In this document: one piece after another, positions 1,430 through 23,294 of the stretch
Layout of the letters: every line of letters begins with the position of its first letter
Position numbering within the stretch: position 1 is the first letter of the stretch
Source: Armatimonadota bacterium
GTDB lineage: Bacteria > Armatimonadota > SYMT01
Direction: 5' to 3'
Assembly: GCA_041690135.1 (NCBI GenBank)
Contig: JAWLHY010000016.1
Coordinates: forward strand, 96,001-160,000
Length of the DNA: 64,000 nucleotides
The notes under the pieces: generated by a model
What the model was told of the DNA's origin: nothing
Databases searched by the model: none
What the model saw: only the letters and a program-made list of their open reading frames with translations
Position numbers and translations under genes: made by a program

Positions 1430-4400
1430 TTATCTCTTGTATTGAAATTGCCGGCTCTGGACGATCAGGTCCACGGCGACGGAGAACCGGTACCCCTGCT
1501 TCGCGAGTTTCCGTTCCATCGCCTCAAGGAGGGGTTGGTCGGAGAGCTGGACGGCACGTCCGAGCGAGTAGCCCAGCAGCTTGCGGCAGAACTGGCGCAG
1601 GACCGTATCCCGCCGTTTCTGGACGAGATAGGTTCTCAAGCCGTCCAACCCGTCGATTTGCTGCCCGTCAGGAGTCTCCGCTCGCGTGTCGACCGGGCGG
1701 TTGCCAAGGTCGGTCTTGCGGCTGCGACCGATGGCGTCGAAACCCTCCAGCGAGAAGCCGAACGGATCGATTCGCACATGGCAGCCGGAGCACTTGGGAT
1801 CCGAGGTGTGCCGGACCACGAGTTGCCGCATGGTGAGGCCTTCGGTGGCCGTCTCGTCTTCCGGCAAGGGCGGCACGTTCTTCGGGGGCCGCGGAAGCCG
1901 CTCGCCCAACAACACCTCGCTGACCCAGTTGCCCCGCAGGATGGGACTTGTCCGCGAGGCTCCGGACTGCTTCGCCAGGGTCGCCGCAAGGCCGAGAACC
2001 CCGCCGCGCCCCCGGCTACGCATGCCTTCCACGCGCTGCCAGGTGTCCGCTTTCAGGCCGGAGAGGCCCGGCAGTCCGTAGAACCTGGCGAGCCGTCCGT
2101 TTACGAAGGTGTGGTCGGCATCGAAGAGGCTGAGGACGGAGCCGTCGCGCTGGAACAGGTCGGTGAAGAAACGGATGGCTTCCTCATACATGTCCTGGCG
2201 CAGGACGGCGAATTCCGGGAAGTGCCGCTCGCTCTTTTCGTCCAGAGCATCGAACTCGTAGATCTGGAGCCACTGGCACGCGAACTCGGTCGCCAACCGG
2301 CGGGCGCGCGGGTCTTTCAGCATCCGGCGGGTCTGCGCGGTGAGGACCTCCGGTTTCCGAAGCGTGCCGGAAGCGGCCACGGCCCGGAGCCGTTCATCCG
2401 GCGGTGAGGACCAGAGGAAGTAGCTGAGGCGGGTTGCCAGCTCCCAGTCGGATACGGGCGCGGGACCGGGACCGGCCGGCGCCGTCTCCAGGCGGTAGAG
2501 GAAGGCGGGGGCGGTGAAGATGCGGGCCAGGGTGAGCCGGAACGCCTCGTCGTGCGGCAGTTCTTCCGCGCGCAGCCGGGCGTAAAGGCCCCGCAACTCC
2601 GTGGTTTCGGCAGGGGTCAGCGGGCGCCGGTAGGCACGCGCGGCAAACCGGGTCAGGTGGTCCAACTGCCGGGGTTCAGCGGCGACCAATTCCTTCCGGA
2701 AGGCGTCGGCCCCTGCGTACACCGGCTGCTTGAGCAGCTTGAAGGCCTCCACGAGGTCGGGACGGTCCTGGGTGGCGAACTCGACGATCTGCTCGTAGGC
2801 GTTCACCAGCTTCAGCGGCGCCTGGCTCACCCAGCGGAGCTCGGCCCAAAGGCGGTCCAGATCGCGGGCCTCGGCGTCCGTCAACATCAGACGCCGAAGC
2901 GGCTCGTCCTCCCGGTAGAAGAGCGTGAGAGTGACGACTTCGTCTGTCGGGACGATCTTCGGATAGCAGAGCGCGGCGGGGAATAGCGCGCGGAAGTCCG
3001 CGAAGGCCGTCTCGAACCGTTTTCCGGCGGGACTGCCGGCCCGCACGACCACCGGCGTGCCCGGAAGCAGGCTTCCCAGGCCGTCGCGAGCGGACCGCAC
3101 CTCCATCTGGACACTGGCGTCCATCCCGGCCTCCGGATGGAGTGATGCGGTGGTCGCCAACTCCGCGCCGGCGGCGAGCTCCGCGGGAAGACGCACTTCC
3201 AGCACGGAAGGCGCGCGGACACAGAGGCTGGCCGGGTCCACCGTCTTCCCCGCAGGGTGCTTGCCGAACAGGGACGGGTCCAACCCCAGGACGCCTACGC
3301 CTTCCAATGACGGACGCGCGGTGACGGGCTTTGCCGCGAACTCCCGCCAGACGGAAGACAGCAGCGGGCCGGTGAAAGCGCGCAACTGGCGGTAGAGCGC
3401 CACATCCGGCGATTCGGGGTTCTGGCCGGGCGGCGGTCCCTCAACCAGGAGTTTCTGAAGCGCGGCGGCCAGAGGGAGGCGCTCCGCGGTCGTTTGGGCG
3501 GACTGCCAGCGTGCCAGCAGCGATCCCGCCGGGATGGATGAGACCGGCTCCGCCCCGTCCACCGGTTCCGAGTAGAAGTGCCACACGCCCGCGTTCCCGA
3601 GGCGGTCCGCGTGCGGGTTCCCGTCGAGCACGTTGTCGGCCACATCGCGGGTGAGGCTCCACTCGGAGGCTTTGGGTTCGCCCTCCGCTGACCGGATCCG
3701 GAACTCCAGGTCCGTCAGATCGCAGGAATGGTTCCGGTCTCGGGGGCCGATCACGAGCGACAGCAGGTCCCCCGGGCGAATGGCCACCGGCTCTGTCACG
3801 GTGAAGGGAGCTGCCTGGGCGGCGTGGGCCGTGCCTGCCGCCAGGCGTCGACGCATGCCGCCGCGCCGGAGTTCTAGCGACCAGGTGACGCCGTTTCCGC
3901 ACTCCGGGTGAGCGTGGGTCACCTTGCCGTCGATCCGCACCGCCCCTCGCAGGGGGCTCCGCCAGCCGACGCAGGCGGAAAGCGTGGGCGTGGGATGGAC
4001 GAACACGCCGTGCGGCTTCGCGTGGCCGGGTATACGGACCGCCTGGTCCGACGCGTTGGTGAGCAGGCTGGGAAGGTCCGGCGAGCCCCAGCCATTGATG
4101 AAGGGATGCCCTCCGCCGCTCGTGAGCTTCGTGCGGAAGTAGGTGAGGTTCAGCGGGGCATTCACCCCGATACCCAGCGTCTCGAGCCAGGGATTCAGCT
4201 CGGCGGTCCGGACCCCAAAGCGTTCCGCGAGTTGCGCCACCGCGGTTTCGCTCTCCTCCCGGGTGGCCGCATTCGCCGCCGCAAGCGCCTTCGCGGTGGC
4301 CGCAAAGAGCTGCTTCCGGCGGGCCAGCAGCTCTCCCGTGAGAGCGCGCACATCCCGCAGGGGCAGGTCCGGCCGGCCGGGCGCGACTAGGCGCGGCTGC

Positions 4401-19325: not shown

Positions 19326-20096
19326 TTACTCGGCTTTGCTGGATGCCGCAAGCTCCAGGATTTGGGTTCGGAGGATCGCCACCCACGCCGTGTAGCCGTC
19401 GTTGTTGAGATGAAGGCCGTCGTCGCGCAGCAGGTCCGCGCGCGGCTCCCCTTCCGGGGTCAGGAACTTGGTGTGGGAATCGAGGTACGCCAGTTTGCCG
19501 CCCTTTGCGTTCTGTTCCTGAATGTAACTGGCAATCTGGCGGTTGGCCTCCACCATCTGCTCCTGCAGGTTCCAGCGCTTCACGCTCGGGTTGATCGAGA
19601 TGAAGGCGATGCGGGTGTCCGGCAACTCGGCGCGTACTACGGCCACGAACTGTTCGAAGTCCTTTCGGACCTGTTCGGGGGTCAATCCCCGGGCGATGTC
19701 GTTGCTGCCGGCGTACAGGACGATCAGTCGCGGCTTGTAAGGAAGCACGATCCGGGGCGCGTAGTGGGTGCATTCCGCGATAATGGAGCCGCCGAAGCCG
19801 CGATTGATCACCTCCAACTCGGGGAAATCGTCGGCCAACGTCTTCCAGAGGCGAATACTGGAGCTGCCGACGAACAACACTCCGCCGGTGGGTGGTGGGT
19901 TCTCCCGGTCCGCCGCTTCATACGCGGCAATATCCTTCTCGAAGCGTGCTTCAGGTTTGGTTTCCGCCGGCTGGGCCGTACCAGCCGGTGAGGTAGGTGC
20001 GTGGCCAATTGCGGCGGATGCGGGTAGTCCCGGCGCGCCGAGGGAGAAGGCAAGGCCGGCGACCAGAAAACTGTAGATCAAGCGGTGGAGACGCAT
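19326..20096 (-). CDS. SGNH/GDSL hydrolase, exported
   Basis: FVGSSSIRLW, NRGFGGS, YAGSND, DGLHLN. Confidence 0.92.
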   Translation of the reverse strand: MRLHRLIYSFLVAGLAFSLGAPGLPASAAIGHAPTSPAGTAQPAETKPEARFEKDIAAYEAADRENPPPTGGVLFVGSSSIRLWKTLADDFPELEVINRGFGGSIIAECTHYAPRIVLPYKPRLIVLYAGSNDIARGLTPEQVRKDFEQFVAVVRAELPDTRIAFISINPSVKRWNLQEQMVEANRQIASYIQEQNAKGGKLAYLDSHTKFLTPEGEPRADLLRDDGLHLNNDGYTAWVAILRTQILELAASSKAE

Positions 20097-20177: not shown

Positions 20178-22187
20178 TTATACGTTCCGGAGCCCAGATC
20201 CGTCTTTCCCCGAATTCTCCGCTCCTGGAACCTCCCGCACGGACTGGAGCCAAGCAGCCAGTTCGGTGTGGCCGGATTTTTCCGCCCAGGCCAACGGCGC
20301 GGCCCAGGGTTCCGCGTCCAGTTCATCAATGGGAGCGCCGCGTTCCACGAGGAGGCGCGCCATGCCCAGGCGGTTCCAGCGCGCCGCCCACCCCAAAGGC
20401 GTGCTCCGGAGGAGATCATCACGCACGTCCCACTGGGCACCGGCGTCCAGCAGCATGGTAGCGAACTCCGACCGCACCGCTTCGGTCATGACCGGCTGGC
20501 CCCAGGTGCTTCCCAGTGCCGCGACGCGGTGCAGCATCGTCGCACCGAACCGGCCCACCAGGTTGGGATCGCATCGTTCCAGGATCAGGCGGAAGCAAAG
20601 CGCGTAGGTGGACCGGTCCAACTCCTCGGCTCCGCGCGGAACCCAGTGTCCGGGGCCGTGGTTCCAGAGGCGGAGAGGCTGCTCCAGGATCTCGAACCAG
20701 CGGGTATCGTCTTTCGGCCAGTCGAGGCGCTCCAGGCATGCTGCCACGATTGCAGGATCTCCTCCACAGGCGGCAGCCCACAGGAGATCGCGAATGCCTT
20801 TCTCCCCGGTCTCCTTCAGGGAAGGAGATACCTCGTTGCCGCCCTCCAGGAAGCTGAGCCCCAGCGCTGTATGCCGGTATAGTCCGGCCGTGATGGCATC
20901 GACGCGTCCGCCGTAGCGTCGAAGCAGCACGATCATGCGCTTATCCCGCTGACCGTAGGCCTGGAACACGGCCGACCCGCTGGCATAGACCTGCGCGTTG
21001 GGATCGGCGCCCCGCTCCAGCAGCAACTCCGCCAGGTCAAGACGCCCGGAGCCGGCACAGTGCCACAGCGGCATCCCACTGCTGAGCTGCTTCTCCTCCA
21101 GTTCCAGGACCTGCGTCGCCTCGTTCGGATCCAGGCCCAAATCGAGCAGTGACTCCAGCACGTCGGAGCGGTCGTGCTGGACAGCCACGCTCAGAAGGCC
21201 TCCCCGGAAGACATCGATCTGCGTGAATGCTTCCGGCCTCTCTGCGTGGAGTGAGATCAGGGCCTCGCGTTCTCCCAGCGCCACGGCGGCCAACGGCGTA
21301 ATGCGGGCTCCCGCAGTCCTCATCCGGTTCGCCACCGGTTCGAAGCGCCGTAAAGACCCCGGCCTACGCCAGTGGACGGCCCGGACCGCGTGATCCAGGG
21401 GCGTGTGACCGCGAAAGTCGAGCGCGTCAACCTCCGCGCCGTGGTTTAACAGCCAGAAGACCACTTGCTCGCTAAGTGCGGCGGCGGCCAGGTGAAGTGC
21501 GGTGGCTCCCTCTTCGTTTACGGCAACCAGCAATGAGGGATCTTCGTTCAACAGCGCAATCGCTGATTCCGCGGCTTCCCCCCGCAACGCTTCCACAAAC
21601 GGGGTGAGATCAGGCACCGCGACCGACCTGGCCCCAGCCAGTGCTTCCCGGCGCCGCCTCTCCCCTTCGTCGATCGCCGCCACGACCTCCGTGTAGCCTC
21701 GTTCACGGGCCAGGGTGTAGGCACTGGTGGCGTCGCGGTGCGGGTAGATGCCCTGATGCGGGTCTGCTCCCGCTTCCATCAGGAGCCGCACCATCTCCAC
21801 GCAGCGGCCCAGAACCGCGAAGTGCAGGGCCCGGTGCTCGTTGTCGCCGGCCAGGTCCATGTGGACCAGCTCCGGCCGGCGCCGGAGCAAGGCGCGCACA
21901 CGGGATCGGTCACCCGCCTGCACCGCTTCCACCAGGCGGGCTACGGTGGCCCGGTCCAATTCTTCCTTCAGCCGGGGCCAGCTCTCGAAACCGTGGAAAC
22001 GCGCGATCACCAGCAGCGCATCCGAGAGTTGGAAGGTGGCGGGGTCGGCGTTGCGGTAATGGGCATCCACCAACGCCACAGCATCCGGATGCCCGGCTTT
22101 GAACGCCCGGCACAGGTCGCGGGCCTGGCGGCGGACTTGCTCCGCATCCCGGTGCCGTTCGTGCGGCGTGGGGGGCAGGTAACGCAT
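20178..22187 (-). CDS. ankyrin repeat protein with N-terminal helical domain
   Basis: ALHFAV, TALHLAA, TPLDHA, TPLGWAAR repeats; AAGGAG RBS. Confidence 0.9.
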   Translation of the reverse strand: MRYLPPTPHERHRDAEQVRRQARDLCRAFKAGHPDAVALVDAHYRNADPATFQLSDALLVIARFHGFESWPRLKEELDRATVARLVEAVQAGDRSRVRALLRRRPELVHMDLAGDNEHRALHFAVLGRCVEMVRLLMEAGADPHQGIYPHRDATSAYTLARERGYTEVVAAIDEGERRRREALAGARSVAVPDLTPFVEALRGEAAESAIALLNEDPSLLVAVNEEGATALHLAAAALSEQVVFWLLNHGAEVDALDFRGHTPLDHAVRAVHWRRPGSLRRFEPVANRMRTAGARITPLAAVALGEREALISLHAERPEAFTQIDVFRGGLLSVAVQHDRSDVLESLLDLGLDPNEATQVLELEEKQLSSGMPLWHCAGSGRLDLAELLLERGADPNAQVYASGSAVFQAYGQRDKRMIVLLRRYGGRVDAITAGLYRHTALGLSFLEGGNEVSPSLKETGEKGIRDLLWAAACGGDPAIVAACLERLDWPKDDTRWFEILEQPLRLWNHGPGHWVPRGAEELDRSTYALCFRLILERCDPNLVGRFGATMLHRVAALGSTWGQPVMTEAVRSEFATMLLDAGAQWDVRDDLLRSTPLGWAARWNRLGMARLLVERGAPIDELDAEPWAAPLAWAEKSGHTELAAWLQSVREVPGAENSGKDGSGLRNV

Positions 22188-22325
22188 GGAGATCTCCTTT
22201 CACGAGCGGGCCCGAGGTCCGCTCGATCGGGCAGAAAGAAGATCGCCCTGGCTACAGGTAATGCGGCCGGAACAGGTGGACACGGTCCTTTCCGCGGACT
22301 CGGGGGCGCCCTGCCGCACCCTCTC
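22188..22325 (-). ncRNA. candidate cis-regulatory structured leader RNA
   Basis: Multiple mutually exclusive stems between an extended -10 (TGCTATACC, 22330-22338) and the RBS; see findings. Confidence 0.5.
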
Positions 22326-22405
22326 GCTTGGTATAGCATGAAGACGACCGGAGGGCACCACGCAAACCGGAGCAAAAAACTTCCTGATTCATCATGCGGA
22401 AGTGC

Positions 22406-22436
22406 TTGACCCTGACGTTACGTCACCCTGTAGCCT
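22406..22436 (+). promoter_or_regulatory. MerR-type promoter/operator
   Basis: TTGACC-N19-TAGCCT with dyad TGACGT-T-ACGTCA (22413-22425) in the spacer. Confidence 0.85.
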
Positions 22437-22460
22437 GCACACGGAAAGGAGGAGGACACC

Positions 22461-23294
22461 CTGAACGGCCGTTTCTATCGCACGGGGCAATTTGCACGAC
22501 GGGCATCCGTCACGCTGCGCACGCTCCGCTACTACGACCGGGTCGGTCTCTTGAGCCCCCGGCAGCACACAGATGCGGGATATCGCCTCTATTCGGACGA
22601 GGACCTGGTCCGATTGCAGCAGATCCTGGGGCTCAAGTTCCTGGGTTTCACGCTGCAGGAGATCCGCGCCTGCCTGGAAGCTGGGCCGCAGCAGCTCTCC
22701 GTGGTGCTGGCGCAGCAGAAGGCGATGCTGGTGGACAAGCGCCGCCAGCTCGACGCAATCTTGCGGGCGATCGAGGAGACCGAGCAGCTTGTGCAGGCCG
22801 GCGAGTGGAATTGGGAGGCCATCGCGGGGGTGATCCAGATAACGCAAATGGAACAAAAGAGTGAATGGGTGAAGAAGTACTTCTCGGAAGAGCAACTCGC
22901 CAAGATGGAGGAGCTTAGCCAGAGCTCCTACTCGCCCGAAGCGCGTGAAACACTGGCTCAGCGCAGTGGGGAGTGGACCGAGGCCGACCAGCAGCGCGCC
23001 CAGGAACAGTGGGCGCATGTGGCGAACGAGGCCCGCCGACTGGCTGCTGCCGGAGCGGACCCCGGCGGACCCGAAGCTCAGGCAGTCGCGAAGTTCAAGT
23101 ACGAGCTTCTTTCGGCCTTCACACAGGGGGATCTCCAGGTGGAAGCCGGCCTGAACCGATTCTGGGAACAGTTCCAGGCATTGCCGAAGGACGAGCAACC
23201 GTTCGATAACTCTCCCTTCGACGCCGGAGAGGAGGGCAATGCCCTGCTCAACCGCGCTATGGAGATCTACCGAGAGCGGAGTGCCGGTCCCTGA
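22461..23294 (+). CDS. MerR family regulator with TipAS-like C-terminal domain (CTG start)
   Basis: YRTGQFARRASVTLRTLRYYDRVGLLSP...GYRLY; ADPGGPEAQAV; AGGAGG before CTG; in-frame TAG at 22431. Confidence 0.88.
   Translation: MNGRFYRTGQFARRASVTLRTLRYYDRVGLLSPRQHTDAGYRLYSDEDLVRLQQILGLKFLGFTLQEIRACLEAGPQQLSVVLAQQKAMLVDKRRQLDAILRAIEETEQLVQAGEWNWEAIAGVIQITQMEQKSEWVKKYFSEEQLAKMEELSQSSYSPEARETLAQRSGEWTEADQQRAQEQWAHVANEARRLAAAGADPGGPEAQAVAKFKYELLSAFTQGDLQVEAGLNRFWEQFQALPKDEQPFDNSPFDAGEEGNALLNRAMEIYRERSAGP

Follow-up and report, generated by a model that had tools for sequence, protein, structure and literature searches.

Several translational riboswitches, among them preQ1-II, SAM-II/SAM-V and NAD+-II, occlude the Shine-Dalgarno (SD) sequence within or beside a pseudoknot. 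Here we describe a conserved leader RNA that recalls them, encoded on the minus strand of a 64,000-nucleotide (nt) stretch from an Armatimonadota bacterium (GenBank assembly GCA_041690135.1, contig JAWLHY010000016.1, positions 96,001 to 160,000; this whole stretch is hereafter the window), directly in front of a gene for an ankyrin-repeat protein. Like those riboswitches, it would act in cis from a 5' leader, and it shows a conserved pseudoknot, a paired SD and no intrinsic terminator. It differs in that a dedicated anti-SD strand pairs with the SD and is predicted to stack on a hairpin (P4), in that the pseudoknot helix (P2) joins the P4 loop to a separate 5' domain, and in matching no Rfam model. 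The ZTP (pfl) riboswitch of purine and folate genes is built from two conserved subdomains, a variable linker and a long-range pseudoknot; the leader shares this plan, but its sequence and helices are different, it gives no covariance-model match, and it accompanies one protein domain family instead of purine or folate genes. Ribosomal-protein leaders are autogenous operators, structured leaders bound by the protein that they encode. They resemble our element in the pairing of one leader with one protein domain (here the N-terminal domain of the downstream proteins, or N-domain) and in presumptive control at the ribosome-binding site, whereas the N-domain is not known to bind RNA and, from phylum to phylum, the RNA varies less than the protein does. 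In fourU and ROSE thermometers, which are simple hairpins, a U-rich strand pairs with the SD and wobble pairs are included; the same is seen here, with the difference that the leader has four further covarying helices and a pseudoknot. Finally, the abstract of PMC6859854 presents the nadA motif (NAD+-I) of Acidobacteria as a narrowly distributed class tied to a single gene. The leader is likewise exclusively upstream of one gene family and common in Acidobacteria, but the nadA gene pointed to its ligand, while the leader folds differently and spans many phyla.

An earlier note, made from the letters of this DNA alone, had proposed a structured cis-regulatory 5' leader at this place, either a riboswitch or a protein-binding RNA, with no Rfam name. 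Comparison with other genomes bears this out: homologous leaders are conserved and they covary. The parts of the element in the window, in 5' to 3' order, are these:

22330–22338, minus strand: putative extended -10 element TGCTATACC, with TATACC at -17 to -12 and no final T
22188–22318, minus strand: whole conserved leader RNA, about 130 nt, from the first conserved base to the base preceding the start codon
22318–22316 (UGC) with 22309–22307 (GCG), minus strand: P0, whose "loop" is the 5' strand of P1
22314–22310 (GCAGG) with 22276–22272 (CCUGU), minus strand: P1, inside which lie a conserved junction, P3 and the 5' strand of P2
Between the P0/P1 strands and the P2 5' strand, minus strand: junction CCCCCGA
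22294–22299, minus strand: P2 5' strand GUCCGC, pseudoknot partner of 22217–22222
22289–22293, minus strand: J2/3, GGAAA, an SD-like purine junction that is nearly invariant by alignment column counts
22278–22288, minus strand: P3 hairpin GGAC-CGU-GUCC, whose pairs are among those with the highest mutual information
Directly after P3, minus strand: invariant A
22245–22271, minus strand: variable linker, holding a second ACCUGU and GCCGCAUU
22234–22244, minus strand: anti-SD GAUCUUCUUUC, paired with the SD over 11 base pairs (bp) in the window
22210–22232, minus strand: P4 hairpin, GCCCG (22232–22228) with CGGGC (22214–22210)
22222–22217, minus strand: P2 3' strand GCGGAC, in the P4 loop
Between P4 and the SD, minus strand: linker of 8 nt
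22191–22201, minus strand: SD region GAAAGGAGAUC, paired with the anti-SD

The fold is knotted, since P1 is crossed by P0 and by P2, and P2 crosses P4 as well. Its central feature, absent from the earlier note, is the pairing of anti-SD CUUCUUUC with SD GAAAGGAG.

The family was assembled from the window outwards. The region was compared by BLAST with 41 genomes (the window's own and 40 relatives), three of which matched. The informative matches were another copy of the leader within the window's own genome (on contig 4, at 71% identity), which ends exactly at a start codon, and a leader in a relative, G002; there was no alignment of the coding DNA on the flanks. R1, a covariance model made from the window's leader and these two, finds full-length copies in six of the eight genomes of the window's class. 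A degenerate pattern in International Union of Pure and Applied Chemistry (IUPAC) code for part of the core, scanned against one genome per species, matched at least 120 stretches; 80 loci among the matches listed were analysed, and all 80 match R1 over its full or nearly full length (81 matches, 25.9–80.3 bits). Among the matches listed, the record titles name Acidobacteriota (the majority), Gemmatimonadota, Planctomycetota (Phycisphaerae, Tepidisphaeraceae) and Actinomycetota (Amycolatopsis, Streptomyces, Kribbella, Nonomuraea, Actinomadura, Solirubrobacterales), and further Chthonomonadales, Dehalococcoidales, Candidatus Cybelea, a Polyangiaceae metagenome-assembled genome (MAG) and Proteobacteria MAGs. 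Cultured carriers, again by title, include Streptomyces sp. P1-3, Amycolatopsis spp., Nonomuraea typhae, Kribbella and Rugosimonospora acidiphila. A second model, R2, aligns 88 instances. In an even draw of 151 genomes from the window's phylum it recognises the leader in 33, which belong to 29 of the 99 genera; in five genomes, each from a different phylum, there are one to four copies. Both models match positions 22182–22318 of the window full length (R1, 137.4 bits; R2, 112.1 bits). Across the family the leader measures about 115–155 nt and its variable linker 19–34 nt, and a crude test found no conserved hairpin inside the linker (4.10 versus a null of 4.11).

All six helices, that is P0, P1, the P2 pseudoknot, P3, P4 and anti-SD:SD, covary. 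In the 88 sequences, 96.3% of alignment cells hold standard pairs, against 89.0 ± 0.3% after shuffling, and the covariation score is 0.264 versus 0.137, a value reached by none of 500 shuffles. Sliding the partner strand by one to three columns leaves 38–52% pairing, and 19 of 31 pairs change on both sides. Because the pattern had fixed part of the core, the count was repeated on an independent set, the 20 lower-scoring matches of the phylum sample that had been found by the model alone and not by the pattern. Pairing there is 93.0% versus 76.0 ± 1.0% for shuffled columns, the covariation score is 0.494 versus 0.196, and both-sided changes occur in 28 of 31 pairs.

The signal is spread over the whole fold. 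Mutual information with average product correction (APC) puts pairs of P3, P4 and P2 on top. P2 is 100% paired in the 88 sequences (UA 84/CG 4 and CG 80/UA 7 at two of its pairs) and 99.2% paired in the independent set, where all six of its pairs change on both sides and the strands take such forms as GUCCGC/GCGGAC, AUCCGC/GCGGAU, GCUCGC/GCGAGC and GACCAC/GUGGUC, among others. P3 exchanges GC 71/AU 16 and CG 76/AU 6/UA 5 in the larger set and changes on both sides at four of four pairs in the smaller. P4, with UA 41, CG 34, UG 6 and GC 3 at pair 109:158, does so at four of five pairs in both. The mean helix length of P1 is 4.27, against 3.64 (standard deviation 0.10) for a shuffled-partner null; its pair 8:49 is AU in 50 of the 88 sequences, GC in 29 and GU in 7, and the independent set shows both-sided changes at four of its five pairs. 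P0 was noticed on inspecting the R2 alignment: its pair 3:11 is CG 45, UA 13, UG 10 and GC 7, and of its three pairs two are altered on both sides among the independent sequences. The anti-SD:SD helix is 97.0% paired, with both-sided changes at six of eight pairs in the 88 sequences and at eight of eight in the independent set. The junctions of the 5' domain are conserved as well (CGCMUCC-N between P1 and P2, GRAA between P2 and P3), and across many phyla there is next to no variation in the A that follows P3 or in the unpaired CGC..CC and GCGGRAA.

That the conserved element is an RNA is also visible in its G-U pairs, which are frequent in the helices (UG in 49 of 88 sequences at anti-SD:SD pair 94:177, for instance) and fit the strand of the gene only, since they would be A-C mismatches on the opposite strand. 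We rejected coding potential or an upstream open reading frame (ORF): an in-frame stop precedes the start codon in 59 of 83 leaders, and leader lengths modulo 3 are evenly spread (30/26/27). At its 3' side the motif always ends at the start codon of the downstream gene. On its 5' side, 73 of 87 loci have a TANNNT hexamer whose first base lies 13–16 nt before the first model position, frequently accompanied by a TTGAC-like -35; the base directly ahead of the motif (position -1) is a G in 78 of 87. The window carries TGCTATACC at the equivalent place, a weaker match to the family hexamer, and a promoter scan of this region called no sigma-70-like site. A transcript start downstream of the structure would have spoken against the proposal of a leader RNA; the -10-like hexamer just upstream of the motif argues for a start at the 5' edge of the structure, most likely at position 22318, where the conserved sequence and P0 begin, or a few bases upstream of it, as judged from promoter-like sequence.

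Because the conserved fold pairs the SD with the anti-SD, the ribosome-binding site is occluded in that fold. Pseudoknot-free thermodynamic models give the anti-SD:SD pairing a mean probability of 0.64 (median 0.87), and the pairing is part of the minimum free energy (MFE) structure of 55 of 84 sequences. Together with P4 the helix has a median of -12.9 kcal/mol, and the core of P1, P3, P4 and anti-SD:SD reaches a median of -19.8 kcal/mol, versus -9.4 kcal/mol for P2 with the alternative helix considered below. The leader therefore offers a conserved structured domain with covariation and, in the covarying anti-SD:SD helix, a platform for control of ribosome access, which are two of the features that define a riboswitch. 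In general terms, and leaving aside any particular effector, we consider it likely that this structured leader is genuine, acts in cis and governs the access of ribosomes. The RNA would act in cis on translation initiation of the gene directly behind it. The anti-SD:SD helix would stack on P4, and P2 ties the P4 loop to the 5' domain. This domain, in which the unpaired bases hardly vary, may serve as a sensor whose state is relayed through P2 to the stack of P4 and the paired SD. An effector docking in the conserved junctions of the 5' domain could then, via P2, stabilise or loosen this stack.

The most likely effector seems to be a small-molecule or ion ligand, which would make the leader a new orphan riboswitch class; we hold this at a little under even odds. 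A small ligand is favoured because the RNA core is nearly invariant across phyla while the protein domain is poorly conserved. To the boldest reading, a new riboswitch class whose pseudoknotted aptamer of about 100 nt is nearly invariant across at least eight phyla and senses a small molecule or ion, we give a probability of roughly 0.4. What such a riboswitch would gate, in this still tentative picture, is the translation of a large family of scaffold proteins of the ankyrin, leucine-rich repeat (LRR) or tetratricopeptide repeat (TPR) type that have a common N-domain.

The association with this domain is tight. The ORF downstream of the leader almost always opens with a shared domain of about 80–110 amino acids (aa), with the consensus LPxRPxLEQLKKQAKxL...LxDAQxVxARxxGFxSWPxL. 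In 57 complete ORFs, the N-domain is followed by ankyrin repeats in 47, and in the others by LRR, TPR, SnoaL, glyoxalase-like, FliG_C or Imm1 domains. Searched for with a loose motif, the N-domain lies within 600 nt of the leader at 80 of 88 loci; the remaining eight comprise three cut by contig ends, two motif variants, two disrupted ORFs and one unclear case. The independent set has the N-domain behind the leader in 19 of 20. Seen from the protein side, the window's genome holds the N-domain only in two genes, both with a leader, and seven of eight N-domain genes of the window's class carry one; across the five genomes of five phyla, 10 of 10 RNA matches precede an N-domain and 10 of 12 N-domain matches follow the RNA. 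A profile of the domain (A8) finds the window's ankyrin protein at E = 6.1e-27.

These observations are also what autoregulation would produce, with the encoded N-domain binding its own mRNA leader and repressing or activating translation. The RNA stays with one domain whatever follows it, as the 10 of 10 matches in the five genomes illustrate; a leader found only with the gene of the protein that binds it is what this explanation expects, and this is what we find for the N-domain genes, which have no conserved operon partner. The domain itself is an uncharacterised helical module (an AlphaFold2 model is all-helical and confident, with a predicted local distance difference test score, pLDDT, of 91.1), and its first helix is rich in K and R. 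Yet two partners that co-evolve should drift jointly, and here the RNA core is nearly invariant while the domain has a mean column identity of 20% and only two invariant columns. As weak evidence on the same side, the N-domain resembles no known RNA-binding fold or family. We found no Pfam family for it; NCBIfam gave marginal matches only (PRK05973, E = 0.005, far below its cutoff), a sequence profile against the PDB matched designed proteins only (E ≥ 0.011), and Foldseek against the PDB returned nothing below E = 0.9. A wide VIA-align search reached a best Z of 5.3 with generic helical hairpins over residues 67–110 only, and the ESM Atlas gave only "hypothetical protein" clusters (at most 0.88); such failed searches do not show that the fold is new. 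All in all we consider autoregulation unlikely, if the best placed of the alternatives to a ligand.

An RNA thermometer or another effector-free leader, in which the A-U- and G-U-rich anti-SD:SD helix melts with rising temperature or the fold simply sets a low basal translation or protects the 5' end, appears improbable. Several features would suit it: the SD pairs with a U-rich strand (CUUCUUUC:GAAAGGAG) and conserves a G-U wobble (the UG found in 49 of 88), the helix is only moderately stable even with P4, no covarying alternative fold was found, and the RNA probably begins at the transcript 5' end. A thermometer, though, needs the SD helix only, and about 50 nt of pseudoknotted 5' domain with nearly invariant unpaired bases would be left unexplained; this is no simple hairpin without a further domain, since P0, P1, P2, P3 and the conserved junctions all lie outside the SD helix.

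Several points weigh against the riboswitch reading or against parts of its evidence. No alternative structure covaries: the sole candidate, J2/3 with the anti-SD, shows no covariation and is worth -1.9 kcal/mol alone, so that a switch is hypothetical here and the fold may be a fixed one. To accompany one protein domain only is typical of autoregulatory leaders, and less so of metabolite riboswitches. Two of the 12 N-domain matches in the five other genomes have no leader, and the closest ortholog of the window's gene (G002:C155, locus L145, about 1700–2060), from a relative of the window's own taxonomic family, has an ordinary short leader in which the motif was not found (best R2 score 7.1 bits). 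Some members, at least, can therefore do without the leader, which was lost or gained within that taxonomic family. Folded alone, the leader region of the window has an MFE of -62.1 kcal/mol, whereas dinucleotide shuffles average -59.9 ± 4.1 kcal/mol (z = -0.52) and 57 out of 200 equal or surpass it; since this single-sequence fold is no better than shuffles, it is not used as evidence for structure. As to the alignments, the 80 pattern-derived sequences are biased toward the core that the pattern required, and alignments A7 and A9 were fitted to the R2 structure for P1, P3, P4 and anti-SD:SD. For these four helices the controls, both slid and shuffled, are in agreement, as are alignments made earlier with MAFFT and R1; P0 and P2 are in no model structure behind the alignments, so their covariation is independent of model fitting.

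The leader occupies the 3' half of a 273-nt intergenic region, and the genes around it in the window are the following:

20178–22187, minus strand: ankyrin gene, 669 aa, N-terminal helical domain and then ankyrin repeats (Pfam Ank_2, E = 1.7e-31), ATG at 22187
22406–23294 including its promoter, plus strand: divergent gene for a MerR/TipAS-family regulator (MerR_1, E = 5.9e-19; TipAS, E = 1.6e-07)
22406–22436, plus strand: MerR-type promoter, TTGACC (22406–22411), 19-nt spacer with dyad TGACGTTACGTCA, TAGCCT (22431–22436)
19326–20096, minus strand: gene for a GDSL-like lipase/acylhydrolase (Lipase_GDSL_2, E = 9.1e-21), 81 nt downstream of the ankyrin gene

The regulator has no canonical in-frame start ahead of its helix-turn-helix, and its sole plausible start is a CTG at 22461, 5 nt past GGAGGAGGA. 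No terminator-like site was called in this region of the window. Leader loci have no conserved gene neighbours (24 downstream and 27 upstream-divergent candidates, all singletons); the GDSL lipase is not conserved at other family loci, the MerR dyad and promoter are not kept there either, and the MerR neighbour of the window's leader is therefore coincidental. That the element is not an RNA at all, and acts as a DNA-level promoter or operator of the divergent MerR/TipAS gene or reflects chance GC-rich complementarity, is suggested by the MerR-type promoter of that gene 90 nt upstream and by the unremarkable single-sequence fold, but is most improbable in the face of compensatory changes, strand-specific G-U pairs, a fixed position at the start codon of one gene family, upstream divergent genes that differ at other loci (all 27 candidates singletons) and a MerR dyad that lies outside the conserved element.

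The helices drawn in the earlier note were judged against 87 to 107 homologous leaders. Every string that it quoted is present on the minus strand: TGCTATACC at 22338–22330, ACCUGU twice, AAGGAG before the ATG at 22187, CCCGAG-UCCGC, GCGGA-C-CUCGGG, GCGGAAAGGA, UUCUUUCUGC, GGUGCGGC, GCCGCAUU, CGAGCGG and CCGCUCG; a repeat search of the window lists three of its arm pairs (I6, I7, I9). The inner part of its outer stem, UCCGC/GCGGA, is the conserved and covarying P2, whereas the CCCGAG/CUCGGG extension does not stand out from the null (2.98 versus 2.95), and CGGGC pairs in its place with GCCCG to form P4. The pseudoknot geometry survives, in that P2 crosses P1 and P4; the crossing helix proposed for it, GGUGCGGC/GCCGCAUU, joins the P0/P1 strands to the variable linker, is probably specific to the window and conflicts with the covarying P0 and P1. 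Of the two ACCUGU copies, the second is in the non-conserved linker. No comparative signal was found for the inner helix GCGGAAAGGA/UUCUUUCUGC, which is J2/3 with the anti-SD: 98.2% of cells are pairable versus 97.7% shuffled (31 of 500 shuffles reach the observed value), there is no covariation, its thermodynamic probability is 0.02, and it competes with the covarying P3 and anti-SD:SD. The competing hairpin fares no better, with at least 6 bp in only 2% of 85 sequences (3.20 versus a null of 3.15), and the switch that the note saw between outer stem and competing hairpin finds no support, both being peculiar to the window.

Some members of the family depart from the common plan. An insertion of about 20–30 nt lies between the P2 3' and P4 3' strands in L029, L053 and L074 (alignment A7) and in L154 and L162 (alignment A9), and the usual SD is absent at the aligned place in L046, L057, L058, L066, L075 and L089, where an N-domain ORF still follows; both groups may be variant expression platforms. 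Units of motif and gene often adjoin at one locus, every gene with its own leader, as in L096 (804–933, plus strand, and 4196–4324, minus strand), G039:C7 (199–322 and 1622–1746) and G068:C3 (143152–143275 and 144575–144699). Immediately upstream of the -35 region of the motif promoter, L009 (G006:C345) has a tandem array of at least 11 copies of the heptamer CCGCATT, and L089 has GGTTCAG(G) repeats at the equivalent place. Four weak model matches were rejected as family members, L012 and L013 (both in G005, 26 bits with R1), L014 and L015, because their downstream genes are different, only the SD region aligns and R2 gives at most 19.3 bits, and in the case of L012 and L013 also because G005 is without the N-domain. 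In two soil runs, short contigs of other organisms match only 22210–22242 and 22273–22317 of the window and then diverge. These contigs are read-sized, with a depth of about 3, and the cores that they match are P4/P2 and P2/P3; this fits the motif being common in soil communities and is not evidence of expression.

The family appears to be unclassified. At gathering score, Rfam 15 has no match in the whole window or in 12 other loci; in E-value mode, positions 22100–22500 returned only an unrelated long non-coding RNA (lncRNA) model on the other strand (E = 6.1), and 20 diverse family members gave no match at E ≤ 1. A full-text literature search (ankyrin combined with riboswitch-candidate or structured-RNA terms, and four 13-nt core strings) found no paper describing the motif; supplementary motif lists lie outside its coverage and could hold an unnamed earlier listing. 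By this search the word ankyrin does not occur in motif-discovery papers including PMC5737381, PMC2864571, PMC8632094, PMC6429828 and PMC11109978, and the last has no mention of Acidobacteri, Gemmatimon, Planctomyc, "repeat protein" or "unknown function". We take the leader for an apparently new family within a known kind, that of structured cis-regulatory 5' leaders and orphan riboswitch candidates.

It is now rare to come upon a structured RNA family that is broadly spread, covaries strongly and is absent from Rfam; this one occurs in about a fifth of the sampled genomes of its phylum and in many phyla of soil bacteria. Its fold is compact, holds one pseudoknot or more and carries a clear expression platform, as orphan riboswitches usually do. 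With one RNA and one protein family, whose defining domain has no clear relative in the libraries searched, leader and gene make up a self-contained module. If the protein binds its own leader, the N-domain would be a new RNA-binding domain. If a ligand exists, a physiological role would be assigned to thousands of bacterial ankyrin-repeat proteins, and should the riboswitch reading be true, the identity of that ligand would reveal the purpose of the N-domain protein family.

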